This document shows positions 3,913-62,434 of a DNA stretch of 64,000 nt, in pieces. The position numbers and the translations under genes are program-made. Source of the DNA: Nanobdellota archaeon (lineage in GTDB: Archaea > Nanobdellota > Nanobdellia > Parvarchaeales > Parvarchaeaceae); assembly GCA_021791655.1 (NCBI GenBank), contig JAJYWD010000001.1:32655-96654 (forward strand). Reading direction: 5' to 3'. How positions within the stretch are numbered: the stretch's first letter is position 1; each line of letters opens with the position of its first letter. The notes beneath the pieces are model-generated. The model did not search any database, had not been told where the DNA came from, and saw only the letters and a program-made list of their open reading frames with translations.

Positions 3913-3919
3913 CCGAATT

Positions 3920-34029: not shown

Positions 34030-34036
34030 ACAGCTT

Positions 34037-34573: not shown

Positions 34574-34629
34574 CAGTCCATTATCGAAATACGTTTATAA
34601 ATAAATTATGACTTTAATCATTTGTCGTT

Positions 34630-44327: not shown

Positions 44328-46061
44328 ATGAACAAGAGAGAACTGGAGGAGTACTCGAAACTTATAGGAGACAAGCCGGGTGACTGGCTAAAGGAGCTAA
44401 GAAAGAGAGCCTCCACTCTAGATGCTCATTACAGCGGAAAGTTGAATGAATTCCGGTTTGCGGGGGGGAAAGAAGTTGCACCGACCGGGCTTTTGGGCAA
44501 TCCTAACGGCTTCTTCATGAGTAAGGATGTTCTTAAGCGACATCAGTTCCTTGGGGAATACATGTCATTTATACAGGAACTCAGCGCATTCGGCTATACT
44601 GATCGATTGAAAGAAATGGAAATCATAGATCCCAGTGCGATGTCAAATATGTTTACAATGATATTTGATAAGCGCAAGAACCTGGAAGACAGAACCATGC
44701 AGCTTTTGGGCAGCATAAATCAGGTTTTGAAGAGTGTAATCTCAATAATATACGAATTGAAGGAATTGGACAGGAACGTGTCCTTCTATGAAAAAGCTAA
44801 GGTTAAGGCCGACCCAAAGACCGCTGAGGCGGGCGAGCTTGGATTGAAGAGGATATTCATAGACAATGTTGACTCGAGAAAGCGCGAGGCCAGTCTTTTG
44901 TCCCTTTCGCGAGCGCCTTCCCAAGGGGGTGGCGGAGGCGGCGGATATATCGATATAGTGTCGGTCTTTTATTCTATAAAGAAACTTTCCGACATAGAAA
45001 CGCTCAACAGGAACGAGCAGTACAAGAACGTGTTGAAGAATAGATTCCTGGAATATGAGGACTGGAAGAAGCTGAGCGAAAAAGACCTCAAAACTAGAAG
45101 AGAAATGCTGTTGCAGTATCTTAAAAGTCAAAACGCTTCTTTCGAAATGTATCTGCAGTGGGCTTATCAGTACATGACGATACTTAAACGCATAAATCTA
45201 AAATCCTCAGGTATGAATGCAGGAAGCGCTGCCAGTGCTTATACAAACGCTTCTACCAATCTAGACGTTTCCGAATTCGCAGCCTTCACAGTAAACTTAG
45301 TAGCCGGCAAGCAGATTTTAATGAAGGAATACGACGTCTCATGGGAAAAGGCATTTGGAAACGCAGGTCCATTGATACCTGTGGCTGCTTCGCCAAAGTC
45401 ATCCTCTGTCACACTGGAAACCCGCGGAGGTAAGTTAAGTGAAAGAAGATTCATGTACGACAGAATAAAACAGTATGGTCCAAAAGTCATAGCAGCTATA
45501 GAGGCAGAATTTAAGTTTAAGGAAAAACCTTTCTTTTCTGAGCAGATGCCGCAGACCCCAATGCAGTACGAGGGCGCTCTGGACATAAGGCTTAATCCGT
45601 ATTGTTTTTCCTTGGATGAATGGTACCTGTTTAAAAAAGCGATACAGACGCAGGTGCAGAGTAGCGTCTTCAGCGGACTTGACAGCGTTTTGGTCACTTC
45701 CCTTAAACCTATGAAAGACGATCTGGACAAGTACATAAAAGAGGCAGAGAACCTTAATAAGCCCTCGGAAAAGGCGACACCTTCATTTGCCTTTTTAGAC
45801 ATATTCCAATCCTTCAGAGAGGATCTTCGTGGCATAACCAGCGAATTGTCTTCTGCGAAAGGCAGCAGTTCCGGTAAACGCGCGTCTGATTCACCAGAGA
45901 TGTATGAAATTGCCGTTAATAATCGATTGAATCGCTCCCTTCACAGGGATGCGCTGGCCCTGGGCACTTTCGTCGTCAACGAGGACGTGTCGTTGATATA
46001 CGAAGAAGCAAAGAGAAGATCGAAGTTGCTCAATAGTTTGGACCACACGGACATATTTTGA
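44328..46061 (+). CDS. Uncharacterised 577-aa soluble protein with internal Gly7 linker
   Basis: Long clean ORF with no TM segment, no Walker motifs and no domain I recognise. It heads a run of four tiny membrane-peptide genes. Confidence 0.5.
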   Translation: MNKRELEEYSKLIGDKPGDWLKELRKRASTLDAHYSGKLNEFRFAGGKEVAPTGLLGNPNGFFMSKDVLKRHQFLGEYMSFIQELSAFGYTDRLKEMEIIDPSAMSNMFTMIFDKRKNLEDRTMQLLGSINQVLKSVISIIYELKELDRNVSFYEKAKVKADPKTAEAGELGLKRIFIDNVDSRKREASLLSLSRAPSQGGGGGGGYIDIVSVFYSIKKLSDIETLNRNEQYKNVLKNRFLEYEDWKKLSEKDLKTRREMLLQYLKSQNASFEMYLQWAYQYMTILKRINLKSSGMNAGSAASAYTNASTNLDVSEFAAFTVNLVAGKQILMKEYDVSWEKAFGNAGPLIPVAASPKSSSVTLETRGGKLSERRFMYDRIKQYGPKVIAAIEAEFKFKEKPFFSEQMPQTPMQYEGALDIRLNPYCFSLDEWYLFKKAIQTQVQSSVFSGLDSVLVTSLKPMKDDLDKYIKEAENLNKPSEKATPSFAFLDIFQSFREDLRGITSELSSAKGSSSGKRASDSPEMYEIAVNNRLNRSLHRDALALGTFVVNEDVSLIYEEAKRRSKLLNSLDHTDIF

Positions 46062-46066
46062 GAGAT

Positions 46067-46237
46067 ATGCACAGCAAAGGACAAATGCCGGTAACAGAGG
46101 TTGTATCCATAATACTTGCCATAATAGTGTTTGTGGTCGGCGTAATAATCGCACTGTATCTCTCGCACACGGGAACCAATTTAGGGGCGGAGATAATGAA
46201 AGCACTCTCCTTTAGCTGGCTTTTTGGTGGTTTATGA
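46067..46237 (+). CDS. Small single-TM peptide with prepilin-like N-terminus (1 of 4)
   Basis: 56 aa, MHSKGQMPVTEVVSIILAIIVFVVGVIIALYL…. Its stop overlaps the next start (ATGA). Confidence 0.35.
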   Translation: MHSKGQMPVTEVVSIILAIIVFVVGVIIALYLSHTGTNLGAEIMKALSFSWLFGGL

Positions 46238-46413
46238 ATACCAGGGCTTCGGTCCCCGGGACTGTAATGGTTTATATAATCTTACTTATCGCGGGTATGA
46301 TAATTCTTATAATACTTTTCCAGTTGTTCACACCGTACAAGATAACTTCGCTGCTGGACGGACTTTTTAACTCCAGTGGCAAATTCACCAATAGTTCTGG
46401 GAGGCTGACATAG
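46234..46413 (+). CDS. Small single-TM peptide (2 of 4)
   Basis: 59 aa, MNTRASVPGTVMVYIILLIAGMIILIILF…, with a sequon-containing tail. Confidence 0.35.
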   Translation: MNTRASVPGTVMVYIILLIAGMIILIILFQLFTPYKITSLLDGLFNSSGKFTNSSGRLT

Positions 46414-46418
46414 ATAGC

Positions 46419-46571
46419 ATGTATAAACGGGGCGTCACCGATTTTGTCTGGATGCTTATAATAATCCTGATAATAAGTCTGGTAATAATATTGGTATATC
46501 TGCTTGTTTTCTCACCTTCGTTCTTGCTCGGCATACTGCCGCACGCGCCGTCAACGTCATCTGGCTATTGA
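46419..46571 (+). CDS. Small single-TM peptide with KRG-hydrophobic N-terminus (3 of 4)
   Basis: 50 aa, MYKRGVTDFVWMLIIILIISLVIILVYLL…. Confidence 0.35.
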   Translation: MYKRGVTDFVWMLIIILIISLVIILVYLLVFSPSFLLGILPHAPSTSSGY

Positions 46572-46572
46572 T

Positions 46573-46758
46573 ATGCTAACGCAAAAAAAGGGTGTGTTAG
46601 AGGCTTCTTTGTTCTATATAATCGCGATAATACTTGGTATAGTTCTTATAATAGTTTTCGTTTTGATTGCCGGTCCTAATCGTATCCTAGCCGCGATAAC
46701 GCAAGCCATCTCTGGTTTTGCCGGAACGATTTTTGGCGGACTCAACAGTACAATATGA
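46573..46758 (+). CDS. Small single-TM peptide with KKG-hydrophobic N-terminus (4 of 4)
   Basis: 61 aa, MLTQKKGVLEASLFYIIAIILGIVLIIVFVLIAG…. The raw ORF extends upstream from a TTG, but this ATG is 2 nt after the preceding stop. Confidence 0.35.
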   Translation: MLTQKKGVLEASLFYIIAIILGIVLIIVFVLIAGPNRILAAITQAISGFAGTIFGGLNSTI

Positions 46759-46880
46759 GCCTGTTCTTCATGGATTCCTTGTCTCCATTTAAAAAGAACT
46801 CGCCGGTAAAATTTATTTATAAGAGCGTTTACATCTAAAAATGTGTAGGGGGAAAAGAGAAACAAAATTGATTTTAGTTT

Positions 46881-47459
46881 ATGCTTACCTATAACGATTT
46901 CATAAGGATAAGACGTAGCGAGCAAGAGGACAGTCGCGTCATAACCGACTTAACCGATAAACTAATCGAGGATATGAAGGATTACATCGCTTTAAGTAAA
47001 AGTGTTCTTGAGGAGGCTAAGAAAAACAGGGACGATAAGCGCGTCGAGGAAGTCTCAGCCCAGACAAAGAACGTAGTAAACTCGCTGACACAGATAATAA
47101 ACTTCCGCCTTATAAAGTTCGCGCAGATAGCAATATTCGGTTCTCCAATAGAACAGATGCGCCAGAAGATGTCCTCAAGCGAGCTGATATTTTTTGATAG
47201 TTTGCAGAATCTGATAAACGAGCACAAGAAGAGAGTGATAGGAGAAATAACGGACGTGACGCCCCGCGCGCCCGTTATGCAAGAGCAACCAGATGAAGAG
47301 AGTGCGGATAAGGTTGTCGTAAAGATAATAACTAACGTGCCACGTTTTGTCTGGAAAAATGATAAGTCATACGGCCCATTTTCTTTTCCGAGCGTCGTTG
47401 AGCTGGACAGGGACGTGGCTGATATTCTTATAAGGAGCGGAAAAGCCCAGAGTGCATAA
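46881..47459 (+). CDS. Hypothetical helical protein (possibly GINS-like; weak)
   Basis: 192 aa. Its stop overlaps the hef start by 1 nt. The C-terminal …FPSVVELDRDVADILIRSGKAQ resembles the B-domain ending of GINS subunits, but this is recollection only. Confidence 0.35.
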   Translation: MLTYNDFIRIRRSEQEDSRVITDLTDKLIEDMKDYIALSKSVLEEAKKNRDDKRVEEVSAQTKNVVNSLTQIINFRLIKFAQIAIFGSPIEQMRQKMSSSELIFFDSLQNLINEHKKRVIGEITDVTPRAPVMQEQPDEESADKVVVKIITNVPRFVWKNDKSYGPFSFPSVVELDRDVADILIRSGKAQSA

Positions 47460-48985
47460 TGTTCCTTGACAGATCTAAAATAGAAGAGCGTACGTATCAA
47501 ACCTCTATATTTGAGAATACTAAGGATAAAAACTCTCTAATAGTTCTACCAACGGGACTGGGTAAGACGATAATCTCTGCCATGCTTATAGATTACAGAC
47601 TGTCTGAGTTTCCCGGCTCTAGGGCACTGTTTCTTGCGCCCACTAAACCGCTGCTAAACCAGCACGGAAAGACGCTTTCAAGGCTGATGAACTTGAAGCT
47701 TGCAGTTGTGAGTGGCTCAGTCAGCAAGGCCGAGAGAGGGGGGACGTATAAAGATAACGACCTGATACTTGCGACGCCACAGACGATAGAGAATGACATT
47801 GCTTCCGATTTGATTGATTTGTCTGCATTCAGCATAATAATAGTCGATGAAGCGCATCATTCCATAGGCAACTACGCATACGTCAAGGTAGCGGATGAAT
47901 TCCTTCGCAGGTCCTCGAAACCTAACATAATCGGGTTGACGGCTTCTCCAGCCTCCGACCAAGGTAAGATAATGGAAATCTGCAAGAATCTGCACATATC
48001 AACAGTTGAAATACGCGGAGAGGATGACTCGGATGTGTCCCCATACATAAAGACAAAGATAGTACAGGAAGAACGGATTGAACTGCCGAAGGAAATAAAA
48101 AGTATAATCGCAGAAATAAAAGGGATAATCGCTGACCAAGTGACTGCGCTGAAGGGCGTAGGTATATTGGCGGAGGTCCCAGCCAGCAGGATAAACCGCG
48201 TGACTATCCTGAAAGTTCAGAACGGTCTAATAAAACGTCTTAGATCCGACAGGAAATCGTGGTACGCCATCCGCGGCATAATAATAACGTCTAAGATACT
48301 AAAACTGTACCACGCACTGAATCTTGTATCTACCCAGAGCGTAGAAGCCTTTTATTTATTCTTATCCCGGCTCATGGCTGGGAAAGCAAAATCCGATAAG
48401 GAGCTTGCGAAGTCCGAGGCCGTCGCACACGTAATCGAGTCCGCTAGGGCACTCTTGGACAACGGAGAAGAGACTCCCAAGATAGAAAGGCTTAAGGAGA
48501 TACTGCAAAAGTCCGTAACCAAGGATAAACGTGCGATAGTTTTTACCCAGTACAGGGACAATGTTGATGTATTGTACAAGTATCTATCTAAGATGGATGG
48601 AATACGGCCCGCTAAGTTCATAGGCCAGGGCAGGAAAGGGCTCTCCCAGAAAAATCAATTGGAGATAATAAGGCAGTTTGAGGAAGGGACGATCAACGTT
48701 CTTATCTCCACCAGCGTTAGCGAGGAGGGCATTTCTATCAAAGGTGTTGATACCGCCGTATTCTATGAGACAGTATCCAGTGCTATAAGGATGATACAAA
48801 GAAAAGGGAGGGTTGGCCGATTTGATGTCGGGAAGATATACCTTTTAATAGCGGAAGACACCAATGACGAGGGTTATTTCTGGCTCTCTAAGAGAAGAGA
48901 GAAAGCAATGAGGAAAATAGTGTCAAAGATAAAGGACAATCCTTCTATGATAACCAACGACGGCACGCTCCGACCTTTCACTTAG
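47459..48985 (+). CDS. hef: Hef/ERCC4-family SF2 helicase (helicase domains only, no nuclease domain)
   Basis: 508 aa. Walker A LPTGLGKT, DEAH box IIVDEAHHSIG, then motif VI QRKGRVGR. It ends directly after helicase domain 2. Confidence 0.8.
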   Translation: MFLDRSKIEERTYQTSIFENTKDKNSLIVLPTGLGKTIISAMLIDYRLSEFPGSRALFLAPTKPLLNQHGKTLSRLMNLKLAVVSGSVSKAERGGTYKDNDLILATPQTIENDIASDLIDLSAFSIIIVDEAHHSIGNYAYVKVADEFLRRSSKPNIIGLTASPASDQGKIMEICKNLHISTVEIRGEDDSDVSPYIKTKIVQEERIELPKEIKSIIAEIKGIIADQVTALKGVGILAEVPASRINRVTILKVQNGLIKRLRSDRKSWYAIRGIIITSKILKLYHALNLVSTQSVEAFYLFLSRLMAGKAKSDKELAKSEAVAHVIESARALLDNGEETPKIERLKEILQKSVTKDKRAIVFTQYRDNVDVLYKYLSKMDGIRPAKFIGQGRKGLSQKNQLEIIRQFEEGTINVLISTSVSEEGISIKGVDTAVFYETVSSAIRMIQRKGRVGRFDVGKIYLLIAEDTNDEGYFWLSKRREKAMRKIVSKIKDNPSMITNDGTLRPFT

Positions 48986-49406
48986 TTAGTATTACTTGGA
49001 ACTCACCACCAGGTCCATAGGAGCTTCCGCCGGTTGTATTGCATACGTAGCGCTCAGTTCCTGTAACCAACTCGGTAAAGCTAAGGCCCTTAAGTCCCGC
49101 CTCGTAGCTGCCTATTTTGCCAGAATTATTATAAAGCGAATATGTTAGTCCGGGACTTCCCTCCGAAGCATTTACCTGATAATAGCAGCTCTGTGTGTTG
49201 CAGCTTAGATTTGCCGCTGATATCTGGCAAGGCAACGGGCTGTTTCCTGAGGTCGGCGTGGTCTTTCCCAAGCCCGGTAACGATGCAATGAATGAATGAA
49301 ATATTATTATTATTGCAAATACGGCGAACGCTATGAGTATGATCAAGACGATTATCGTCTCTACAGCCGAAGCGCCGGCCTTATCGCCTAAGAAGTTTCT
49401 GCGCAT
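48978..49406 (-). CDS. Surface protein with prepilin-like N-terminus
   Basis: 142 aa. MRRNFLGDKAG|ASAVETIIVLIILIAFAVFAIIII (Glu at +5 after the Gly) is followed by a sequon/Cys-containing domain. It overlaps the upstream gene by 19 nt. Confidence 0.5.
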   Translation of the reverse strand: MRRNFLGDKAGASAVETIIVLIILIAFAVFAIIIIFHSFIASLPGLGKTTPTSGNSPLPCQISAANLSCNTQSCYYQVNASEGSPGLTYSLYNNSGKIGSYEAGLKGLSFTELVTGTERYVCNTTGGSSYGPGGEFQVILTK

Positions 49407-50869
49407 AAGTATATCTGATTTCTGCCTAGGAATGAAGTGGATCCCGTGTATAGACCCCCCAACGTCGTAATATAATTAAATATCCCCTCTGCGCACTGCT
49501 GCAAGCCGCTCGATGTAAGTAATGCTGTGCTTATTGCGTTTAGTATTGGGGGTATGATATATTGATTACATGGTTGATTAGAGGCGCAAGCTGCCGTAGC
49601 AAAACCACCCGCTACTGATGCGAGTGCGACTTTTCCCATTATAACTCCGCTATCACCAGTACCGCCTACGCCCAAAACTGCACCACTATAAACGATTATT
49701 GCTCTTGTGCACTCATCTCTTATGGAGTTAGTTGGATAGTTATTGAAAAACGTCTGCGGTGTGCACTCTTGCGGTAAAGAGACGGTCGCAGGTGGGAATC
49801 TAGTATTTGTGAACGAATTCATATAGACTAAATAAAGATCTGCGTGACTTATGCTCTGAGAAGAATTAATCCGACTGAAGTTCGATATGCCACTAGTCTT
49901 GTTTTTATAGCTGTATATGAGATCAAGGCCGGGCTTTAGGTAATTGAAATAGCTTTCATTTTCTATTGCGGTCGGATTTACCGATTCTGTGAGGAGACAA
50001 GACGGGGGCGATTGATAAGAGTCTATTGTGGGATTGTAATCCACCGTACAATTGTATACGCCTTCCGGGTTTTTAGTGCAGAAATTTTGATAGCTCTGCG
50101 TGCACGCGTCTATTTTATTATCGGTCGTGTTTACGCAGGATTGCTGTGAATCATTGAAATAGCACCCCTGCGACGGCTCGCACAGCTCTGTGGACATGTT
50201 TAGGCTGGCCGAGGGATTCGCCCCAGTGAGAGGGATGTGCGTAGTAACGTATCCTTGGTACACATTGTTATAATTCGGTTGCGTCTTGCAGATTGAATAA
50301 TTCAACTCAGTTTTTTGGCAAAGCGTAGGCGTATTGGTGTCGCACACGAAACCCTGCTGGTAGTTTGGACAGGCCTGTTGCGGCGTGTACCCTGTGCAAC
50401 TTATGTGCGAACTAAAGGTGCTGTCTTCCAGGTATTTGGTCAAATTATTGAATGTGATGTTCGTATTTGTGTTTATAGACAATACGCTGCAAAGTCGGGG
50501 CTGTGCGCTGACGACTAGGCTTTGGTTCGCCCCAAACTGGTACCAGCACGTCGATAATGCGGTGGTTATGCCCCCCAATGTCTGGGCCGGAGAGCTCTGG
50601 GAATCATAGTTTAGCGTTGATGTGCTACATCCCAACAGAGGAGGGACCAATCCAAGATTAGAAAGGGAAGAAGACAGGCAGAAGAATTGCGGCACTACGC
50701 ACAGATCTTGATAGAAGAAATTACGCACGTTGGAGCTGACGAAACAAGCGGAACCCGAAGCGAATCCGAAGCCGAGTATCAAAAAGTAGCCGAAAACTAC
50801 TATTATAACGAACGCTATGACCGCAAATAGTATGAGTAGTGCAGCCTTCTCCAAGCCGGTTTGAGCCAT
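49388..50869 (-). CDS. Cys-rich, sequon-rich secreted/membrane-anchored protein
   Basis: 493 aa with an N-terminal hydrophobic helix, about 30 Cys and many N-x-S/T sequons. No recognisable domain. Confidence 0.55.
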   Translation of the reverse strand: MAQTGLEKAALLILFAVIAFVIIVVFGYFLILGFGFASGSACFVSSNVRNFFYQDLCVVPQFFCLSSSLSNLGLVPPLLGCSTSTLNYDSQSSPAQTLGGITTALSTCWYQFGANQSLVVSAQPRLCSVLSINTNTNITFNNLTKYLEDSTFSSHISCTGYTPQQACPNYQQGFVCDTNTPTLCQKTELNYSICKTQPNYNNVYQGYVTTHIPLTGANPSASLNMSTELCEPSQGCYFNDSQQSCVNTTDNKIDACTQSYQNFCTKNPEGVYNCTVDYNPTIDSYQSPPSCLLTESVNPTAIENESYFNYLKPGLDLIYSYKNKTSGISNFSRINSSQSISHADLYLVYMNSFTNTRFPPATVSLPQECTPQTFFNNYPTNSIRDECTRAIIVYSGAVLGVGGTGDSGVIMGKVALASVAGGFATAACASNQPCNQYIIPPILNAISTALLTSSGLQQCAEGIFNYITTLGGLYTGSTSFLGRNQIYLCAETS

Positions 50870-50940
50870 ACCTCATATCCACACGGATAATTAAAATACT
50901 TTAGATTGCTAAAAGTGCCAACTGAATGGCAACTAAAACC

Positions 50941-52185
50941 TTAGCACGTGGCTAGATTGTTCCCGCTGCTCTGTACCGTTAAGGAGCCAGCAGGAGAATT
51001 TGTCGTTTCGTTCGGGTATTCTCCACTGACACTCGAACAGAAATAGCCGTTGGAATTCGTCGTGGCAGTTACTACCTGTTTCTGATAGCTTCCGCTATTT
51101 GGAAAGGATATGCTTATTGTTTGGCCGCTTGCCGGCACGCCGTTGTATAAAAGGGTGCCGTTTGCATACGTATAAGGACACAGCGCCCTCGGAGAGCAGT
51201 TGTGGAACCATTCCTTAGCGCTCGATACAACGTATCCAGAAGCGGTCGAGACAGTGGAATTTGTTACGCACACGAACACTCTGTCCTGCCCAACTGTCAT
51301 TGCATTTATAAGATACCCGCAGAACGATACAAAGTAAGCGTTCTGGCACACTTGCTGTGGGTTGGTAGAGCTTCCACCGAGTGCGAATTCGCCGTTTGTA
51401 AGCGAACTCACCGGCTCGTAGGCTTGGCTCACGGTGCTATTGCCAAAAGAACATGAGGAGTCTGGTACGGATGGCTGGCCGTACTGGCTAACGAACTGGC
51501 ACCTCTGGACGAAAGGCACGTAACAGCCGGTAGGTGGCTTGTTGTACGGGTATCCAAAGTAGGCCACCTGATAATTCGAATTGTTATAGACTATCTGGTT
51601 TAAATCAGGGTATGCCGCTGGACGAGGAGTCTGTGCACTCGATCCGTTCGTTATGAATACGATCTGCAGAGGATTTTGTGGTGAGTAATAATTCTGGTCT
51701 ATGTAATTTATGCCGTAAGCGAAAGTGGTTAAGTTGCTGGTCTCATAATTGTAGATCCTTCCCACATAACACGTGAATACGTTATTTAGTTCGTTGCTGC
51801 TTAGTAGGCTTATTCCGGTGCTGTAATCATTTCCTTGGAACAGGTTGAAGCACGACGACGCCTTAGTGTAAAGCTGATTGGCTATATCCGTCGTGCTGTA
51901 CGCGTTGATGTTACTTGTTTGAATGCATGCAGACTGCAGGGATGTCGCTCCGAATCCCGCTGGCGGCACAAGGTTCAGCGTGCTTCCAAAGGAATACAGG
52001 AGGGAAAACGCGGGGTTATTTATTACGCTGTACGCCAGAAAATCGAAATAACATTTTATCCCGAAACTTTGAGCCCCAACCGACGTTCCAAGTACGAAAA
52101 CGAACGTAAACAGGATGACGGCGGCTATGATTATGAGTACCAGCTCCAGAATAACCGATACAGTTGGAAAAGCTATCGCCATCAT
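50941..52185 (-). CDS. Cys-rich, sequon-rich secreted/membrane-anchored protein
   Basis: 414 aa. MMAIAFPTVSVILELVLIIIAAVILF recalls the bacterial pseudopilin FTLIELLVV segment. The rest is Cys- and sequon-rich. Confidence 0.55.
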   Translation of the reverse strand: MMAIAFPTVSVILELVLIIIAAVILFTFVFVLGTSVGAQSFGIKCYFDFLAYSVINNPAFSLLYSFGSTLNLVPPAGFGATSLQSACIQTSNINAYSTTDIANQLYTKASSCFNLFQGNDYSTGISLLSSNELNNVFTCYVGRIYNYETSNLTTFAYGINYIDQNYYSPQNPLQIVFITNGSSAQTPRPAAYPDLNQIVYNNSNYQVAYFGYPYNKPPTGCYVPFVQRCQFVSQYGQPSVPDSSCSFGNSTVSQAYEPVSSLTNGEFALGGSSTNPQQVCQNAYFVSFCGYLINAMTVGQDRVFVCVTNSTVSTASGYVVSSAKEWFHNCSPRALCPYTYANGTLLYNGVPASGQTISISFPNSGSYQKQVVTATTNSNGYFCSSVSGEYPNETTNSPAGSLTVQSSGNNLATC

Positions 52186-52340
52186 CTGCCTCCGAATATG
52201 TTGGATAAAGTCGAAAACGGCGAGGCGCCGTGTATGCTAGCGTAATATACGGCGTAGACTATCAGTATAGCGACAGCCAAGGAAACCAGCACCACTATCA
52301 GCCATATCACTCTCCATTCTAGACTGCCCTTTGGGTTCAT
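52182..52340 (-). CDS. Small single-TM peptide with KG-SLE prepilin-like start
   Basis: 52 aa, MNPKGSLEWRVIWLIVVLVSLAVAILIV…, not in the supplied ORF track (below 60 aa). Its stop overlaps the start of the 414-aa gene, and its start is 2 nt after the upstream stop. Confidence 0.35.
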   Translation of the reverse strand: MNPKGSLEWRVIWLIVVLVSLAVAILIVYAVYYASIHGASPFSTLSNIFGGR

Positions 52341-52341
52341 A

Positions 52342-52857
52342 TCATTGTCCTGCGCAAGGCGGGCAGAACTTGCTGTCGCCCGCTACGCACGTGGGGATGT
52401 TTATCGCACAGTTCTCTATGTTGGTGGAATTGTCCGCGACTATCGTGCTTTTCTGGCAGCTTTCCAGCGCTGCAGTATTTGCCGGAGAAAGGTCTCTACA
52501 GCCCTGTATGACTTGCGGATATGCAGAAGGGAACTGTATGCAAGTCTGTACGTTCGTTACTTCGGAACCTGGTTGTTTTGATAGATAATAGCACCAGTGG
52601 GTTATGCACGTCTGATTGGCTGTCGCTTGGTCGTAACATGCGTCCGTTAGGTAACACCTGAAAAGAGGCGTGCCTTCCATTCTGTTCGCGTAGCCGTATT
52701 CTGCCTGCGTGAACTGGTTTTCGATTATGTTATTATTGTTACATCCGACGGGGAAGACTGGGGAAAAATCAGCCAGGAATACGTAAAATATCACCACTAT
52801 CACTATAACTGCGAACACTACTCCTATCAGTATGAATTCCTCTACATTCTCCTGCAT
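52342..52857 (-). CDS. Cys-rich membrane-anchored protein
   Basis: 171 aa, MQENVEEFILIGVVFAVIVIVVIFYVF, followed by about 14 Cys including a C-terminal CPPCAG. Confidence 0.5.
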   Translation of the reverse strand: MQENVEEFILIGVVFAVIVIVVIFYVFLADFSPVFPVGCNNNNIIENQFTQAEYGYANRMEGTPLFRCYLTDACYDQATANQTCITHWCYYLSKQPGSEVTNVQTCIQFPSAYPQVIQGCRDLSPANTAALESCQKSTIVADNSTNIENCAINIPTCVAGDSKFCPPCAGQ

Positions 52858-52908
52858 AGAGTTAGATTGAAATACTCGATTAAATCCTTTTTATGTCAGG
52901 CGGTTGGC

Positions 52909-53316
52909 TCACTTTGCAAGGCGGTCGTGCATTACGACCTCATACCACTGGTATTTTCCATTGTCTCCTAGGAAATAGGATCCAAGTATGTCCATGTTCG
53001 GATAGCGTTTTGATGCTCTGTTCTCCGCGATTTTCTTTTTGCTTATGCTTAAATTGTAGTATATACCGGTCTTACTGGGCCTCCTCGCGTGCACCGGTCT
53101 TGCCCTTCTGAAGCTTCCTCGATTCACTCTAACCCGAACTACAATATAACCCCTTTTTGCCTTGTAGCCTATAGATCTCGCTTTGGCGAGTTTTGTTGGC
53201 CCGTCGGGCCTCTCGATGGACGAACTTCGCGCCAGTGCGTATACCAGTTCTCTTTGGCGGTCCTTGTCCTTGTAAATGGACTGCTCGTTCTCACGTATGT
53301 ATTTGAAGGCTCCCAT
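52909..53316 (-). CDS. rpl15e: 50S ribosomal protein eL15
   Basis: 135 aa. MGAFKYIRENEQ…YKAKRGYIVVRVRVNRGSFRRARP… matches L15e. Confidence 0.85.
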   Translation of the reverse strand: MGAFKYIRENEQSIYKDKDRQRELVYALARSSSIERPDGPTKLAKARSIGYKAKRGYIVVRVRVNRGSFRRARPVHARRPSKTGIYYNLSISKKKIAENRASKRYPNMDILGSYFLGDNGKYQWYEVVMHDRLAK

Positions 53317-53393
53317 AAAAATCTTATAACGTTAACTTTCGCGATACTTACTTTTTAGTGAATTAACATATTTAAGCCTTAATCACAGCGCTT

Positions 53394-53834
53394 TCAGTTG
53401 GTAACCTGTCCTTTTATCGCTATAGTCTGACTGAATGAGCTGTTTGACGGGGTATAGGTAATTATTATTTGTGCGTTGAAATTGGAGGGCAGCGAAACCG
53501 TTAGGTTGCACGAATCTGAATCCAAGGGCGGCATGTACGCCGGCAGTGTGGTTTCGCACGTGAACGCGTTCGAATTCACGCTTCCAGAGACGAATGAAAT
53601 TCCGTCAACGTTTATATTCTCATTCAGCAGATTTTGGAAATCCAGGGAAAACGTGCCGCCAGAGTATCCCTGCGATACTATCTTTAAACCCTGGAATCCG
53701 CTTACCGTGGGTGTGCTATACGGTGAGAACAAAGCTGGGTCAAGCACGAATATTAATGCGACTGCAAAGCCTACTATGAAAAGGACAATTCCATAAATCG
53801 TAAGATACTCGAGTGCGCTTTGACCAATCCTCAT
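53394..53834 (-). CDS. Archaeal type IV pilin-like protein (DUF361-like N-terminus)
   Basis: 146 aa, MRIG|QSALEYLTIYGIVLFIVGFAVALIF. This is the classic archaeal prepilin Q-x-S-x-E-Y start, followed by a small beta-rich domain. Confidence 0.6.
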   Translation of the reverse strand: MRIGQSALEYLTIYGIVLFIVGFAVALIFVLDPALFSPYSTPTVSGFQGLKIVSQGYSGGTFSLDFQNLLNENINVDGISFVSGSVNSNAFTCETTLPAYMPPLDSDSCNLTVSLPSNFNAQIIITYTPSNSSFSQTIAIKGQVTN

Positions 53835-53880
53835 ATCTTATACAGCACAGCTTCCCAATTAATAAGCCGCGGATAGTTCA

Positions 53881-53963
53881 AGCCTTGGATGGGACTCGAA
53901 CCCACAACCTCCTGCTTTTTCAGATTGTACGAAGCAGACGCTCCGCCATTGAGCTACCAAGGC
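53881..53963 (-). tRNA. Intron-containing tRNA, probably tRNA-Thr (anticodon CGU) with an 11-nt intron in the anticodon loop
   Basis: Reverse complement reads GCCTTGGTAGCTCAATGGCGGAGCGTCTGCTTCGTACAATCTGAAAAAGCAGGAGGTTGTGGGTTCGAGTCCCATCCAAGGCT. Acceptor, D and T arms are perfect, with T-loop TTCGAGT. The anticodon stem TCTGC/GCAGG encloses 18 nt (TTCGTA + 11 nt + A). Confidence 0.6.
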
Positions 53964-54127
53964 TCAGTTGAACCCCACATTTTTATTGGTATCCTTTCTG
54001 TATACACTCTCATTAGTAGCGTGCTCTAAAGCTTTAAATGATTTTCCGCAGAAAAAACATCTTACGCTGGACGTGGAACTTGTGCGGCGGTACTTCCCGC
54101 ATGCGGGACATCTAACAATATACGTCC

Positions 54128-54844
54128 TCATATGCCTCTACGTATAGTGTCCGCTAATTTAAGGAATTCCTTTGATGCCCTGCTCCTAGAATTTAGGTGA
54201 GTGACCGGCATGCCGCTGTTTAGCGCATCCGTCAGTTTATCGTCCTCCGATATCGTACCGATTACATCGCCACCCATAGACAGCACCGCATTTTCCGCAA
54301 GTTTCTGCTTTCGTCTATTAGATCTATTTACGATTATCCCCAGCAATTTTATCGCGTTTTCTCTCAGTTCCTTTGCTAGCTCTTTTGCTTCCAACAAGGA
54401 TGTAAGGTCCGGGTTTACAACTACCACTATCTCTGCATTTGGTATAAGCCTGATAAAGTCGATGTCAGTTGCAGGTCTGGTGTCGATTATCACGAAATCG
54501 TAACTGTTAACGACCCGGCCTATGTGAAAGAACAGGTTTATCAGCTGGTAATTTGCCGCTTTATCGCCCTTTTTCCTGAATACACGCGATGGCAGAATAT
54601 CCAGCCCGTATCGTGTATGGTATATGGCGCGGTCCACCTGTACAATACCATTGAGCACGTCCTGCAGGGCCATTTCGTAGTCATCGAGCCCATAGTGCAC
54701 GGCTATGTGCGAGGTCTCCATATTCGCATCTATAAGAAGCACCCTAGACTTTTTTGTCGCTAGTGCGGATGCTAGATTCGCCGAAACGGTAGTTTTTCCG
54801 ACGCCGCCCTTTCTCGACATTATCACTATTATTCTGGCGACCAT
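54128..54844 (-). CDS. ParA/MinD-family P-loop ATPase
   Basis: 238 aa with the deviant Walker A SRKGGVGKTT and Walker B FVIIDT. Confidence 0.85.
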   Translation of the reverse strand: MVARIIVIMSRKGGVGKTTVSANLASALATKKSRVLLIDANMETSHIAVHYGLDDYEMALQDVLNGIVQVDRAIYHTRYGLDILPSRVFRKKGDKAANYQLINLFFHIGRVVNSYDFVIIDTRPATDIDFIRLIPNAEIVVVVNPDLTSLLEAKELAKELRENAIKLLGIIVNRSNRRKQKLAENAVLSMGGDVIGTISEDDKLTDALNSGMPVTHLNSRSRASKEFLKLADTIRRGI

Positions 54845-55423: not shown

Positions 55424-55683
55424 GTGTGCTTTGCTTTATTGTAATATTTTTTGTGTACGGTGTCGCCCCAGCTGAACTTGCCGTGTTCTATTTTTTCTAT
55501 GACTATCAGGTCTCCTCTGGCAAGTGCGGTTTTAAGATAGTGATAAACCAGTCTGCTGGAAAGTCCCTCGTACTTTTCCTTTAGTGCCTTGTAGATCCCA
55601 TACCCGGTGAGCTGTTCACTGCCGACCGTATTTATTATGTCATTCAATAGCTCTTCATTGATTTTTTTAGCCATGTTACCCAC
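55420..55683 (-). CDS. Small winged-helix DNA-binding protein
   Basis: 87 aa. …TGYGIYKALKEKYEGLSSRLVYHYLKTALARGDLIVIEKIEHGKF is wHTH-like. It is the last gene of the secFD-extended operon. Confidence 0.4.
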   Translation of the reverse strand: MGNMAKKINEELLNDIINTVGSEQLTGYGIYKALKEKYEGLSSRLVYHYLKTALARGDLIVIEKIEHGKFSWGDTVHKKYYNKAKHT

Positions 55684-56185
55684 ACTGCGGAGCCGAATTA
55701 TTAATAGATTTGCAGATGTACTCCAGTATTCCGGAGTCTGCAGCGGAAAGGCTAGGGTAGCTGCCTATCTTGGAATAAGCCCCGCCAAAGATAAAGAGCG
55801 GCACGCTGCCACCAGAAGTATTTCGCAGTATACTGAGCGCTTCCGGGGGGATGGAGACGCTGCCGTTCGTGCTGTAGCCGCTCATATTAAACGCATACGC
55901 GCAGAAATAACCGCTGTAAAAGTCCTGTCCGGTCCATATACCGAAAAGAGAGGTGTCGTTTCTGAATGCGGCATATTCGCCAAAGCAGTCTTCACAAGTA
56001 TTGTCATAGTACATCAGCATGGAGGGCTTTCCTAGGCCGCACAGAGACGACGTGTTTATGTTCGCATTGTGCACCGAGTAATAACTGTTTAGATAGCTAA
56101 CGTTCTCGTATAAGACGGCAGAGAACACGGCCAATCCCGCTATCAGGACGATGTAAACGACAATATACGCCTTTGCTCTATACAT
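55676..56185 (-). CDS. Membrane-anchored CxxC protein, putative extracytoplasmic thiol-disulfide oxidoreductase
   Basis: 169 aa with an N-terminal TM, then …YYDNTCEDCFGEY… (CxxC) in a thioredoxin-like context. Sequon-rich. Confidence 0.4.
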   Translation of the reverse strand: MYRAKAYIVVYIVLIAGLAVFSAVLYENVSYLNSYYSVHNANINTSSLCGLGKPSMLMYYDNTCEDCFGEYAAFRNDTSLFGIWTGQDFYSGYFCAYAFNMSGYSTNGSVSIPPEALSILRNTSGGSVPLFIFGGAYSKIGSYPSLSAADSGILEYICKSINNSAPQCG

Positions 56186-57128
56186 AAAACGAAGCGTTTA
56201 CATCCGGCTTCGCGCTGGTACAGTTATTACTAGCAGTATCTATGCAGATGTTTGTTACGTTAGCCCCCAATGTTGAGAACATGTATTTGTATGCGAAGGG
56301 ATCGTACACGTTTTCATTCGGTATGAAATTGAATATGTTAATGGTAGAGTTACACGGCTTTATCTGCGGAAAATAGTAGACTAGGTTCTGGAACGGCCCA
56401 GTTATGTAAATTCCCTTTACGAGAGTACCGTTCGGCATGCTTATTACTTCCTGCTCTAGCTGCGTTATGTTTATAAGTGCGCTTAGCATTGAAGCCGTGC
56501 TATTCGATGTGCTATTGAGTAGGTTTATGTCATCTCGCACGCCGCTTAACAGATTGTATAAATCAGAGCCATTAACCGACTGCACGATGCTACTGTTATA
56601 AAGCGTCTCAAATTCGTATTTTGTGAAATTGTAGAGTTCGGATGTATAAGCATAGTCTGTGTTGTTGATGAAAAGGGAGTATAGCTGCTGCTTAATCGCA
56701 CCGCACGCCGTAGAATTATAAATAGAACATACTGTGTACTCGTTGATCTTTTCATTTATGCTGTTAAGATTGTTGAGTGCGTTCTCTTGCGTCTTGTTGA
56801 GATAATACGAGAGGTTTCCCACCCCCGGCAGTGAGCCGCTCAGGTTAAATACCGGGAGCGGGGTAAATTCTCTATTGCAGTTTACCACCAGATTCTCGGT
56901 ATCCAGATTACCGCTAGAATTGTAGAGGACGAACAGATTTGAGTCGTTGGACAGGTTGTAGTAATCCAGAAAGTCGTTTACCTTTATCGAATTAGCTGAT
57001 AACTGTTTTGTCGTGTTATAAGACGTATTCGTGAAAGATGAAATGTCGCTGGAGTAGACCAAGACGGTTAACACCAAGGCAATCACCAAAAAAATCGCAA
57101 GCGTCAGCGTTTTTCTATCGGTTTTCAT
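56178..57128 (-). CDS. Heavily N-glycosylation-sequon-rich secreted protein (signal anchor)
   Basis: 316 aa, MKTDRKTLTLAIFLVIALVLTVLVYS, then more than 30 N-x-S/T sequons. No recognised domain. Confidence 0.5.
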   Translation of the reverse strand: MKTDRKTLTLAIFLVIALVLTVLVYSSDISSFTNTSYNTTKQLSANSIKVNDFLDYYNLSNDSNLFVLYNSSGNLDTENLVVNCNREFTPLPVFNLSGSLPGVGNLSYYLNKTQENALNNLNSINEKINEYTVCSIYNSTACGAIKQQLYSLFINNTDYAYTSELYNFTKYEFETLYNSSIVQSVNGSDLYNLLSGVRDDINLLNSTSNSTASMLSALINITQLEQEVISMPNGTLVKGIYITGPFQNLVYYFPQIKPCNSTINIFNFIPNENVYDPFAYKYMFSTLGANVTNICIDTASNNCTSAKPDVNASFYV

Positions 57129-57913
57129 ACGCTTAATCTTTCTCTTAGGGCCTTTGCGAGCAACTCCGGTTCTGTGTTTATAGTTCTTATGCCGAGTATT
57201 TCCATATTTGAAACATCTCTTCCATATAGTTTTACCGTGAAGTGTCCATACTCCCTTTCTACGAGTGCAATCGTTTCGAATTTACCGGCATTCAGCAATC
57301 TTTTTATTAGTCCCGCAAGATCAAATGATAGCACAGAATCCATGTCTCCGATCTTCAGGTGCTTGATTGGGGCTATCTCCACCTCTATTTCTTGATGCGG
57401 AGAGTAAGGGACAAAAGCCACGAAATTTTCCGTCTTTTTTATCTCCCTGTTCGCTGTGTTTTTCGTGTTCTGACACACCCGGCAGGTGCCGCCGTTTAAG
57501 TGTGGAATTTCGGTGATCGTAATATCGAAGTACCCGTGTCCGCCGACTCTTCTGGATATCACCAAGTTTTTGCCAAATTCATACGCAGACAATGAATTTG
57601 TCCTGTCCTTTATCAGCATTAGCAGGTCGGATAGGTCCTCAGCAGAATAAACCGACAGTCTGTCGCGGTGATCGTCATTTTCTACAAGTATCTCTTCGTA
57701 TCCATCTGCGTTAGAGTGCTTGAAAGTGTCGCCTTCGAGAGCGTACTTTGACGGCTGTATACTGTCCTTTATGTCATAAACTTTCAGCTTTGCTCTTGCA
57801 GCTTCCAGTACAATCGGAGCTTCCTTAGGGTGGTCGCACGCCTTGCAGTTTTTCTCTTTACCTGCCACAAGTGCAAACGAAAGATCCGAATTATCCAGTC
57901 TAAATTCGTTCAT
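57125..57913 (-). CDS. HIT-superfamily GalT-like nucleotidyltransferase/phosphorylase
   Basis: 262 aa. NCKACDH provides a CxxC/His zinc site like GalT, and a …VPYSPHQEIEV… second half-domain follows. Assignment tentative. Confidence 0.4.
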   Translation of the reverse strand: MNEFRLDNSDLSFALVAGKEKNCKACDHPKEAPIVLEAARAKLKVYDIKDSIQPSKYALEGDTFKHSNADGYEEILVENDDHRDRLSVYSAEDLSDLLMLIKDRTNSLSAYEFGKNLVISRRVGGHGYFDITITEIPHLNGGTCRVCQNTKNTANREIKKTENFVAFVPYSPHQEIEVEIAPIKHLKIGDMDSVLSFDLAGLIKRLLNAGKFETIALVEREYGHFTVKLYGRDVSNMEILGIRTINTEPELLAKALRERLSV

Positions 57914-57914
57914 A

Positions 57915-59486
57915 TCAGCTTAGCGCCACCCCCACCATCTTTGCATAGGCCGGTCTGGTTATCAACAAACCAACAAGCGACGCCAGTATTGTCGTCAGTG
58001 CAAAGCCGGTGAACAGGCTGGCCGTTGAGAAGAACAATGGAAACATGATCGCCGCAAAGGATAGGAATGATACCGTGATTATGAAAAAGGCCCTCTGTAT
58101 TCTTTTCTTTACACTCGCGCCCTCCGCTATGGTTGAGCCCCTGCGTATCTCATCGGTTATTATTATCTGGTCATCCACTGATATACCTACGCTTGCTATT
58201 ATACCGGCTATGCTAGGTATATCAAGTGTCCAGTGTATGAGAGCAGCTAAGCCTATGACCACGAATATCTCCGCTGCACTCGTCATGAGTATCATCGCTG
58301 ATATCTTGTAATTTCTGTACCTAAGGAATATCACTATGCTGGTTACAACGAAGGCGGACAAAAGCAGTATGTAAATCTGGCCTATGAACTGTGTACCTTC
58401 GACCGGCGAAACCGAATTTATTGAGACTATCTTTACGGCTATAGGCAGGCTGCCGCTCTCCAGTATGGCCTGCAGTGTCTTCATATTATTATACGCCTGC
58501 TGGTAAGTTGCGCCGTAACCCTGTATCTGTATCACTTGCTGTACTTGTCCCTTAAGGTTTGAATTGACCTGCAGGGACGACACCTGTTTGTTGTTTAGGA
58601 AAAGCAATATCGGATGCTTAAGGTAGCCGTTGACAATCGGAATCGTCTTTGTTGCGTTCGCAAACGTTTCTGCTGCAAGTTTGCTTATCTGTATGCCAAA
58701 ATCGAATTGGTACCCGCCGTTCGATTGCGTGGGCGGCTGAAGCCCTCCGTACGGACAACTGGAGGTAAGACACACGTTAAGTATGCCCTCGTTAGGGTTA
58801 CTATTGTTTATTACTGTAACGTTGTTTATCTGTGCGTAGAAAGAGCCCTGGTTGTTTACCAGTGAGAAAGCCTCGGCTTCGCTCACGCTGGGCATGCTGA
58901 CCTGCACGAACGAACTGCCGGACACTGTTTGTATGGAGTTTACAGAGATGCCGCTTATGCCGTATGTGTTAAGCCTTGCGTTTAGTATGGTCTGTATCTG
59001 CGATATATCGGTACTGTTGTAGTGTGTGGAATTGGGTGCCAGCAGTATCTGCGTACCGCCTATTATGTCGAGTCCGTAATTTAGGTTTGAGCTTGGGACG
59101 TCCTGCACCTGTATGTAAGTGGAGTTTATCGGCGCCGCGCCGGATACCGGCACTTTTACCTGCTGAGGTACGAATATGTACGGAAATATCTGGTTGCTGT
59201 AGCTTATGGTTATTGTCGAGTTCGGGAGTGCGGTCCGGTTTAGCACGGAATAGAACTGCTGCGCATTTTGTGTGCTCAGCCCATTTATCGATGTTATTAC
59301 TGAACCAACTCCCAGCGTTGTAGCACCGTTTGCGCTGAGGTTTCCGAGCAGAGAATAAGGAGATAGGTATATGATTTCTGCACCCCCTATGCCGAAGTTG
59401 GGTTCTATCGCCAGGAACGCTATTATGAGTGTGGCTATGAGCACCAAGATCCTCCAATCTTTAAGCACGCTTTTCGGGTTTTCCAT
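57915..59486 (-). CDS. secD: Protein-export membrane protein SecD
   Basis: Start set to MENPKSVLKDWRILVLIATLI. One TM helix, a large sequon-rich periplasmic domain, then six C-terminal TM helices with …GISVDDQIIITDEI…. The raw ORF extends 63 nt upstream. Confidence 0.8.
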   Translation of the reverse strand: MENPKSVLKDWRILVLIATLIIAFLAIEPNFGIGGAEIIYLSPYSLLGNLSANGATTLGVGSVITSINGLSTQNAQQFYSVLNRTALPNSTITISYSNQIFPYIFVPQQVKVPVSGAAPINSTYIQVQDVPSSNLNYGLDIIGGTQILLAPNSTHYNSTDISQIQTILNARLNTYGISGISVNSIQTVSGSSFVQVSMPSVSEAEAFSLVNNQGSFYAQINNVTVINNSNPNEGILNVCLTSSCPYGGLQPPTQSNGGYQFDFGIQISKLAAETFANATKTIPIVNGYLKHPILLFLNNKQVSSLQVNSNLKGQVQQVIQIQGYGATYQQAYNNMKTLQAILESGSLPIAVKIVSINSVSPVEGTQFIGQIYILLLSAFVVTSIVIFLRYRNYKISAMILMTSAAEIFVVIGLAALIHWTLDIPSIAGIIASVGISVDDQIIITDEIRRGSTIAEGASVKKRIQRAFFIITVSFLSFAAIMFPLFFSTASLFTGFALTTILASLVGLLITRPAYAKMVGVALS

Positions 59487-59487
59487 A

Positions 59488-61159: not shown

Positions 61160-61218
61160 TGGATACAATATGTGATAGAGAGGATATACTATTAATATAT
61201 TATACAGCATCTCTTTCT

Positions 61219-61963: not shown

Positions 61964-62434
61964 ATGCCAAAAAATGCCCAATCAGCATTAGAGTACATGA
62001 TGACCTATGGCTGGGCGATACTTATCATCGTCATAGTGGCCGCGGTCCTGTACAGTCTAGGCATTTTCAATCCAAGCAGCAGCGCTGGCAATACGGCTAG
62101 CGGCTTTGGCGGCTTTACGGTGCAGCAGGGTGGATTCACGTGCAATTCTACTGGCGTGTTCCTAGCATTAGGAAACTCGCAAGGTACGCAAGTTACAGTG
62201 CTAAACGCAAGTATAACGTCTTCAACTGGTTTGAGTACCCCTACGGGTAGCAATGGTTCTATCAATAAACTTGTAAATCCGCAGAGTACGATTACAATAA
62301 AATTCACATCAAACACCTGTTCCATCACTGGTGCAAGATACAGCGCTAACATACAGATCTATTACAGTACGACTGGAGCTCTAGGCACACAAACACAGCC
62401 GACTACCGGTACAATCTCAGGATCTTCCAGTTGA
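61964..62434 (+). CDS. Archaeal type IV pilin-like protein (DUF361-like N-terminus)
   Basis: 156 aa, MPKNA|QSALEYMMTYGWAILIIVIVAAVL, with a Thr/Ser-rich mature domain containing sequons. Confidence 0.55.
   Translation: MPKNAQSALEYMMTYGWAILIIVIVAAVLYSLGIFNPSSSAGNTASGFGGFTVQQGGFTCNSTGVFLALGNSQGTQVTVLNASITSSTGLSTPTGSNGSINKLVNPQSTITIKFTSNTCSITGARYSANIQIYYSTTGALGTQTQPTTGTISGSSS

Follow-up and report, generated by a model that had tools for sequence, protein, structure and literature searches.

Organization of the Locus

The window analyzed here is a 64,000-nt stretch of DNA from a Nanobdellota archaeon (Parvarchaeales), and the locus under study is a cluster of seven genes at nt. 48978–53834 on its minus strand, which we discuss as a candidate locus for a type IV filament. 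In the direction of transcription, the first gene encodes p146 (nt. 53394–53834, 146 a.a), an archaeal type IV pilin-like protein with two conserved cysteines, and the second encodes the ribosomal protein eL15 (nt. 52909–53316, 135 a.a; Pfam Ribosomal_L15e, E 3e-34). These are followed by p171 (nt. 52342–52857, 171 a.a), an N-terminally anchored protein with 12 conserved cysteines and no cleavage motif; p52 (nt. 52182–52340, 52 a.a), a tiny pilin-like protein; p414 (nt. 50941–52185, 414 a.a) and p493 (nt. 49388–50869, 493 a.a), both N-terminally anchored and carrying 14 cysteines and 24 invariant cysteines, respectively; and p142 (nt. 48978–49406, 142 a.a), a short pilin-like protein with four conserved cysteines. 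Four further tiny pilin-like genes of ~50–60 a.a (t1–t4; nt. 46058–46237, 46234–46413, 46419–46571, and 46573–46758) lie on the plus strand.

The original prediction for this region described seven co-oriented minus-strand open reading frames (ORFs), and its coordinates and quoted N-terminal sequences agree with the ORF list. The gaps or overlaps it gave at 52340/52342, 52182–52185, and 49388–49406 are likewise correct: a single nucleotide separates p171 from p52, the p52 and p414 genes share an ATGA overlap, and those of p493 and p142 overlap by 19 nt. Wider spacers precede eL15 (77 nt), p171 (51 nt), and p493 (71 nt). Orthologous loci were found in metagenome-assembled genomes titled Nanoarchaeota archaeon, Candidatus Parvarchaeota archaeon, and Candidatus Acidifodinimicrobium sp., which are acid-mine-drainage Parvarchaeales, an acidophilic DPANN group.

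Small Pilin-Like Proteins

Each non-ribosomal product of the cluster had been predicted to open with a prepilin-like N-terminus. We defined the class-III motif as [KR][GA] directly before a ~20-residue hydrophobic helix (a FlaFind-type site, marked below with a slash), followed by D/E at +2 to +6, and compared the N-termini of 9–17 distinct orthologs per family. Only the small proteins of the cluster bear the prediction out, with the [KR][GA] site present in 9/9 orthologs of p146, 14/14 of p52, and 13/14 of p142; in p171, p414, and p493 it is lacking throughout (0/11, 0/16, and 0/17 Parvarchaeales orthologs, respectively).

The p146 protein of the window begins MRIG/QSALEYL, and its orthologs conform to M-x-[KR]-G/Q-x-x-L-E. 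The p52 protein, which reads MNPKG/SLEWRVIWLIVV...SPF..FGG, comprises little more than the helix and a ~15-a.a tail; its orthologs read KKG/SVEWR, with D/E at +2 to +6 in 13 of the 14. In p142, the N-terminus is ..DKAG/ASAVETIIVLI in the window and KKG/STSVE in orthologs, with glutamate at +5. An acidic residue at +2 to +6 is thus found in nearly all orthologs of the three families, while the window copies of p146 (R-I-G/Q) and p142 (K-A-G/A) depart slightly from the strict [KR][GA] pattern. The t1–t4 proteins, with the N-termini KG/QMPVTE, RA/SVPG, KRG/VTDF, and KKG/VLEA, show the site in 9–12 of 11–12 orthologs per family, mostly with D/E at +2 to +6. They fall outside the coordinates originally given for the cluster but probably belong to the same system as the p146–p142 genes.

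None of the six non-ribosomal proteins matched a curated pilin family model (Pfam Class_IIIsignal, Flp1_like, NCBIfam) at threshold. No Pfam or NCBIfam match was obtained for p146, and the match of p142 to Pfam Flp1_like was sub-threshold (E 0.042; 13.8 bits against a cut-off of 33.5). The N-terminal 56 a.a of p146 do share 36% identity (E 7e-7) with a second pilin encoded at nt. 61964–62434 of the plus strand.

This second gene, a p146 paralog of class-III type (KNAQSALEYMMTYGW), is one of several such pilin genes noted elsewhere in the window; others lie at nt. 40034–40717 on the minus strand (DKG/AQFSTEYL) and at nt. 61159–61860 on the plus strand (with an internal MRAQFSSEF start).

Cysteine-Rich Anchored Proteins

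The remaining three proteins, p171, p414, and p493, are of a different kind. Cysteine counts in the locus are 24 in p493, 14 in p414, 12 in p171, four in p142, and two in p146, all even numbers. The original prediction, which had put them at about 30 in the 493-a.a protein and about 25 in the 414-a.a protein, was too high in both cases; its statement that the mature parts are Cys-rich holds nonetheless, the locus proteins standing far above the non-membrane proteins of the window, where cysteine typically makes up 0–1.4% and at most 2.3% of residues. All 24 cysteines of p493 are invariant across 13 sequences of 42–49% identity. Two sequons, N137-x-T139 and N142-x-T144, are equally invariant in this set, and two more keep their Asn (N247 and N323) throughout. 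In p171, 12 cysteine columns are conserved. The p414 orthologs are shorter (298–328 a.a) and hold 10 cysteines versus 14 in the window copy, which carries a unique C-terminal extension of ~105 a.a (nt. 50941–51260) with four extra cysteines, found in no ortholog. This extension gave weak matches to DUF6795 and DUF4198 (E 0.004–0.02) and is possibly an immunoglobulin-like domain. Against Pfam and NCBIfam, p414 returned sub-threshold matches only (DUF6795, DUF4198, and CadC_C1).

A single strong N-terminal transmembrane (TM) helix is present in each of the three proteins. A second TM segment or C-terminal anchor was looked for in p493, where moderate hydrophobicity only and no clear TM segment was seen. 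The composition of the trio is of the exported type: K+R amounts to 2.4–3.5%, compared with 8–24% in window non-membrane proteins, and N+S+T is high. The residues before the helix are acidic, reading xNTEEFIW in p171, MEQG-ILL in p414, and MAETAGE in p493 orthologs (MAQTGLE in the window). Distant homologs of p493 have basic N-termini instead, and about half of them carry [KR][GA] (KKKG/MLET, KKG/EIAVV, MKG/LSNM, and KRKA/LVM). Given these basic N-termini, the topology of the p493 family would be N-in, C-out, and since about half of the distant homologs also keep the [KR][GA] site, the family probably descends from a pilin-like protein.

A high density of N-x-S/T sequons had also been claimed. 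When compared with 2000 composition-preserving shuffles, sequon counts were not elevated (P = 0.09–0.68), save in p142 (P = 0.04), and other exported proteins of the window are richer, such as a 316-a.a N-anchored protein (nt. 56178–57128, minus strand) with 21 sequons (6.6 per 100 a.a). The sequon richness is an effect of the N/S/T-rich composition of exported proteins.

Family Distribution and Predicted Structure

The Cys-rich families are rare. Homologs of p493 form 13 clusters among 5.8 billion proteins, and a profile built from these 13 clusters retrieved 31 representatives (E <= 1e-3) among 1.84 billion proteins; p414 and p146 form eight and five clusters, respectively. For the metagenome scan, a six-sequence subset was used, the nine-sequence alignment being too divergent. 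All named family members are called hypothetical protein. The Cys-rich families have no Pfam or NCBIfam match and no named homologs (arCOG models were not searched), and the earlier failure to recognize any family is borne out in that none of the six non-ribosomal proteins reaches a Pfam or NCBIfam threshold. The further proposal that the assembly is specific to this lineage was too narrow, as the families also occur in other DPANN lineages of Nanoarchaeota type, to which, judging by the homologs recovered, they appear to be restricted.

An AlphaFold2 model of p493, computed from the 13-sequence alignment, reached a mean predicted local distance difference test (pLDDT) score of 62.7, with residues 84–350 at 70–87. 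It comprises an N-terminal helix (residues 5–32), a low-confidence linker, and an alpha/beta ectodomain, for which Foldseek returned nothing at E <= 0.001. The p414 model, based on eight homologs, was unusable (pLDDT 35.5). Sequence searches of the PDB with the p493 profile, the p414 profile, p146, and a neighboring 577-a.a protein gave no matches. Homology to S-layer or solute-binding domains had been named as an observation that would count against the pilus-like proposal; no such sequence or fold match emerged from Pfam, NCBIfam, the PDB, or Foldseek, and the structure searches, which rely on a predicted model, lend no support to S-layer or solute-binding folds and offer no positive fold assignment.

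Gene Order among Relatives

Conservation of the module extends over 14 species of Parvarchaeales and to a sister lineage. Most Parvarchaeales share the order MinD, p146, eL15, p171, p52, p414, p493, p142. In Acidifodinimicrobium (L017/L018) and the sister lineage (L030/L031), the locus begins at p52, with no p146, eL15, or p171 upstream, and continues on one strand through p142, t1–t4, GINS, and a helicase; in L015, the full set is followed directly by t1–t4. The t1–t4 genes stand directly after p142 on the same strand in L015, L017, L018, and L030, whereas the window and most Parvarchaeales have the block formed by t1–t4, GINS, and a Hef-like helicase (nt. 46058–48985) in inverted orientation. 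Whichever way the block is turned, GINS and the helicase always have the tiny pilin genes upstream of them and on the same strand.

Linkage to Type IV Motor Genes in Distant Lineages

In three distant lineages (L024; L027/L028; L032/L033), a p493 homolog occurs in a tightly packed locus, with gene starts overlapping preceding stops, that holds ATPase, platform, and module together. The first genes of this locus encode a T2SSE ATPase (749–764 a.a), an 8–9-TM protein (686–690 a.a), and a 12-Cys protein (136–157 a.a), the last of these genes overlapping the stop codon of the platform gene. They are followed by a tiny TM ORF, a 274–323-a.a Cys protein, a 24–28-Cys protein (460–517 a.a), and short [KR][GA] pilins. 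Walker A motifs were identified in the ATPase, and the 8–9 TM segments are those of a TadC/FlaJ-like platform protein; in L024, T2SSE was matched at E 3e-17, while the platform match to T2SSF (E 5.7e-4) was sub-threshold (20.3 bits against 25.2).

The correspondence with the Parvarchaeales cluster is uneven along its length. The p171 protein is homologous to the 12-Cys proteins of L024, L027, L028, and L032 (hhalign probability 98.7%, E 1.6e-16; tblastn E 3e-6). Between p414 and the distant 274–323-a.a proteins, a C-terminal CGYL..M....VFVC motif is shared (hhalign probability 92%, E 7e-7, 27 columns). The distant counterparts of p52 are weak, comprising a 45-a.a ORF by position and a similarity of ~9 bits, and a counterpart of p142 (LKKG/GVEIETLV) follows P0037 in L024. 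Given that the distant cluster members are labeled Ca. Haiyanarchaeum thermophilum, Nanoarchaeia, Nanoarchaeota, or Aenigmarchaeota, the module appears, from these sequence matches, to span several DPANN lineages of Nanoarchaeota type and to belong to a type IV filament locus.

In the upstream part of the distant loci, we also noted a shared gene set (L024 nt. 537–4004, L027 nt. 753–3339, and L032 nt. 1168–3935). Three of its products are paralogous membrane proteins of ~170–200 a.a that share the motif F..LPF.LIF..VYG.LE; two others, encoded in divergent orientation, are cytoplasmic proteins with coiled coils (~130 and 207–243 a.a). No Pfam matches were obtained for this set, and the window yielded no counterpart of it.

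Pilus Machinery of the Parvarchaeales

According to published tables for acid-mine Parvarchaeales (PMC10134863, Table S6), all 20 genomes, ARMAN-4 and ARMAN-5 included, encode one FlaK (K07991) and one VirB11-type ATPase (arCOG01818), and most encode one TadC (arCOG01812 or arCOG01814). Known pilin arCOGs, by the same table, are 0 in all but one genome, and no archaellum genes are listed (PMC10134863). With the ATPase and FlaK present and known pilins almost absent, the genes of the locus are, going by this published annotation, good candidates for the missing Parvarchaeales pilins.

Predicted Transcription Units and the Position of eL15

In the 37 window genes whose upstream spacers measure 45 nt or more, A+T content is highest at −29 to −23 from the start codon, where it forms a sharp peak of 78–89%. 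This position-specific profile indicates TATA boxes and suggests that most transcripts of this organism are leaderless. A scan for sigma-70 promoters and intrinsic terminators, which are inapplicable to archaea, showed no enrichment, and the position-specific A+T profile was used in its place.

Just upstream of p146 lies a tRNA-Arg gene (nt. 53880–53964, minus strand), and between the two genes a TATA-like box, GGCTTATTAATTGGGAA (nt. 53852–53868, minus strand), covers −34 to −18 of the p146 ATG. The box is conserved at the same place in orthologous loci, and it may serve as p146's own promoter for a leaderless mRNA. A second box, AAAAGGATTTAATCGAG (nt. 52875–52891, minus strand), sits in the spacer between eL15 and p171 as the putative promoter of p171–p52–p414, with ACTTAAAT conserved at −30 to −23 in p171 orthologs. 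The third, TAAAGTATTTTAATTAT (nt. 50887–50903, minus strand), falls in the p414–p493 spacer and would drive p493–p142, a box of TTATTTATA type being conserved in p493 orthologs. Orthologs of eL15 show a strongly conserved ATATTTATA at about −27, of which the window copy is degenerate, and no TATA-like boxes were seen before p52, p414, or p142. We infer four transcription units: [p146], [eL15], [p171–p52–p414], and [p493–p142].

The cluster had been described as a tightly coupled operon with the eL15 gene at its head. This arrangement does not stand, given the conserved TATA-like box between eL15 and p171 and the loci of some relatives in which eL15, p146, and p171 are missing. Because eL15 has its own conserved box in orthologs and its synteny is variable, its sequence context makes it a passenger of conserved gene order that is outside the system, rather than an operon head. 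The protein is 134–137 a.a in five genomes, aligns to positions 1–137 of 191 of the Pfam profile, and falls below the cut-off of the NCBIfam equivalog (133.8 against 178 bits), features that identify it, by sequence, as a lineage-wide, C-terminally shortened ribosomal protein.

Interpretation of the Locus

Taken together, we consider that the region probably (at roughly 60%) represents one half of a type IV filament system similar to archaeal type IV pili, namely the half made up of pilins and accessory proteins, with the unrelated eL15 gene wedged in. Of the envelope, pilus, or pseudopilus assembly suggested originally, the pilus or pseudopilus part is the best reading, resting on the class-III motifs and on the distant loci with ATPase and platform genes; the [K/R]G sites supposed for the Cys-rich trio did not stand.

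Under this interpretation, a FlaK/PibD-type peptidase would trim the small pilins of their short basic leaders, and a single VirB11-type ATPase and a TadC platform, encoded elsewhere in the genome, would polymerize them into a thin surface filament. The p171–p52–p414 and p493–p142 genes would form two translationally coupled transcription units. The three disulfide-stabilized glycoproteins could then assemble into a complex that is anchored in the membrane and serves to prime or cap the filament, acting as a large minor-pilin/adhesin complex in the manner of CofB/TcpB and mediating contact with the host cell.

Several findings speak against a filament system of this composition. Neither the window nor the adjoining 10 kb upstream yielded genes for an ATPase, a platform, or a peptidase (Pfam search of ~60 window ORFs, a set that excludes four at nt. 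32885–35670). Tblastn of the L032 ATPase against the window returned nothing, and nothing in the window proved to be related to the platform of the distant loci; in particular, neither a T2SSE/VirB11 ATPase nor a TadC/FlaJ/PilC platform gene adjoins the window module, while both adjoin it in the distant loci. Synteny within the Parvarchaeales is weak evidence of function because the module sits among housekeeping genes of conserved order in compact genomes. The tie of p414 to the distant loci is confined to the 27-residue motif and gene position. The Cys-rich trio are probably not peptidase substrates, judging from their N-termini; p414 and p493 orthologs do keep a Gly at the helix boundary, and since this Gly is lost in the window species, processing of these two proteins is unlikely. 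The p493 model displays no pilin-like packing and matched no known fold, and a location of the trio at the tip of the filament rather than at its base is a guess.

This last point bears on the main rival explanation, in which the trio forms a basal, stator, or alignment complex in the membrane (FlaF/FlaG- or PilN/PilO-like) that never enters the filament, so that only the small [KR][GA] proteins are polymerized. The lack of a cleavage motif in p171, p414, and p493 of any Parvarchaeales ortholog would be explained by such a role, as would the single strong N-terminal TM helix per protein, and the overlap of the 12-Cys gene with the platform stop codon in distant loci suggests that the two products act jointly. 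However, the [KR][GA] sites in about half of the distant p493 homologs are what would be expected of a pilin-like ancestor, the very large and highly disulfide-bonded ectodomains look more like adhesins than scaffolds, and the fold searches brought up neither FlaF/FlaG nor PilN/PilO. We regard the basal complex as possible, if rather unlikely.

The proteins could also be generic N-anchored envelope or S-layer-like glycoproteins of acidophilic DPANN archaea with no tie to type IV machinery, their neighborhood reflecting frozen gene order. In the Parvarchaeales, the neighbors of the module are indeed housekeeping genes of conserved occurrence (eL15, GINS, helicase, MinD, and SecDF), other N-anchored proteins bearing cysteines and sequons are encoded nearby (nt. 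55676–57128), and the window yielded no pilus machinery. Such an explanation would nevertheless have to account for the recurrence of this gene order in three distant lineages, where the module shows translational coupling to T2SSE ATPase and TadC-like genes, and for the short class-III-type pilin genes that are interleaved with and follow the module in every lineage; nor was any similarity to S-layer or solute-binding proteins found in sequence or fold. Because the module is recurrently coupled to ATPase and platform genes, we hold generic envelope proteins to be less likely, and indeed improbable.

Also less likely, and in our view very improbable, is an N-out, C-in orientation dictated by the acidic N-termini, with the Cys-rich domains acting as cytoplasmic metal-binding (Zn or Fe-S) modules: it finds some encouragement in the acidic flanks of p171, p414, and p493, which have no K/R on either side of the helix, and in the description of cytoplasmic proteins rich in cysteine in the vicinity of certain archaeal type IV pilus loci (Makarova et al., PMC4858521), but is disfavored by the low K+R and high N+S+T content shared with exported proteins of the window, the several invariant sequons of the p493 family, the even cysteine counts without the CxxC-type clustering typical of metal sites, and the Lys-rich N-termini of distant homologs, which fix the topology as N-in, C-out.

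Returning to the type IV filament, a bolder version would see in the four-gene core (12-Cys protein, tiny TM protein, ~300-a.a Cys protein, and 24–28-Cys protein) the signature of an unrecognized type IV filament variant that builds the host-contact structure of these ectosymbionts across Nanoarchaeota-type DPANN lineages. The large subunits of the acidophiles would then be leaderless, independent of the peptidase, and in a sense "pre-matured"; after removal of Met, their acidic N-termini (AETAGE, xNTEEF) would stand in for the mature pilin N-terminus and Glu5. We consider this version doubtful.

Comparison with Known Systems

In subclade 4E of the Thermoproteales type IV pilus loci, almost all components have multiple conserved cysteines (Makarova, Koonin, and Albers 2016; PMC4858521). 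The Thermoproteales loci (4B/4D/4E, PMC4858521) resemble ours in that ATPase and TadC genes are followed by small class-III pilins and larger signal-bearing proteins, which is exactly the layout of the distant homolog loci described above. In contrast, the Parvarchaeales module is detached from ATPase and platform genes, its large proteins lack a basic leader, and its Cys-rich families are confined to Nanoarchaeota-type DPANN lineages, with no Pfam or NCBIfam models. Cys-rich type IV pilus loci as such are therefore already known (PMC4858521). What is new are the protein families, their restriction to DPANN archaea, the loss of leaders in acidophiles, and the detachment of the module from motor genes.

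The initiator minor pilins of type IVb systems, CofB and TcpB, are proteins of ~400–520 a.a with an N-terminal pilin-type helix and large beta-rich ectodomains; their genes accompany those of the pilins, and priming of assembly and a place at the tip are ascribed to them. The size of p493 and its [KR][GA]-bearing distant homologs fit this outline. No sequence or fold similarity to CofB/TcpB was detected, however, and p493 differs in its 24 cysteines and in the missing cleavage site of the Parvarchaeales copies, and a location at the tip would be conjectural.

Among small pilins, those of the Flp/Tad type and the methanococcal EppA-type pilins (DUF361/Class_IIIsignal, QxSxEF) are ~50–75 a.a in length and consist of little beyond the N-terminal helix. 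Similar features are seen in p146 and its paralog (G/QSALEY), in p52 and t1–t4 (47–60 a.a with KG/..E), and in p142 through its weak Flp1_like match (E 0.042). The locus proteins differ in reaching no family model at threshold and in the presence of five tiny families at one locus, and they are candidate prepilins. The archaellum proteins FlaF and FlaG are N-anchored and extracytoplasmic; they are encoded with a FlaI/FlaJ-type motor and are not polymerized. They offer a possible analogy for p171, p414, and p493, which gave no sequence or fold match to them and are much larger and Cys-rich.

DPANN archaea rely on being in physical contact with their hosts, and the connections between ARMAN archaea and their hosts are an example of the structures involved. 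To our knowledge, few of the molecules responsible have been identified. The attachment organelle of Nanobdellota is molecularly uncharacterized, with no pilus-type components named (PMC11420986). Seven candidate pilins come from this locus, along with three conserved proteins whose ectodomains are disulfide-rich; all are labeled hypothetical, and gene order in related lineages ties them to type IV machinery. The locus may thus provide a handle on the host-attachment apparatus of DPANN archaea and concrete targets for the study of symbiont attachment, the system being still a variant of a well-known class and the functional statements made here all inferred.

Neighboring Genes

On the plus strand within nt. 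44328–46758, a gene encoding a 577-a.a soluble, Lys/Arg-rich protein with a seven-Gly run has a stop codon that overlaps the start of t1–t4. Searches of Pfam, NCBIfam, and the PDB left the protein unmatched, and it resembles none of the distant-locus proteins compared, whether ATPase, platform, or upstream set. It is conserved in Parvarchaeales, and its placement relative to t1–t4 shifts with the inversion.

Upstream of tRNA-Arg and p146 (nt. 53964–54844, minus strand) lie genes for a 238-a.a MinD/FlhG-type ParA ATPase and a 55-a.a Cys-containing (zinc-ribbon-like) ORF. In Acidifodinimicrobium, too, the MinD gene adjoins the module, in divergent orientation to p52. Bacterial ATPases of the TadZ/FlhG type position pili and flagella, and a functional tie of the MinD/FlhG-type ATPase to the module is possible.

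Further upstream (nt. 55676–60414, minus strand), SecF and SecD are followed by three conserved genes on the same strand, an order kept in all Parvarchaeales loci examined. These three encode a cytoplasmic-looking 262-a.a protein, the N-anchored 316-a.a protein, and an N-anchored 169-a.a protein with six cysteines. The gene content of the window as a whole includes TFB, GINS, aIF5B, Trm1, ribosomal proteins, nuoJKLMN, and succinyl-CoA synthetase.

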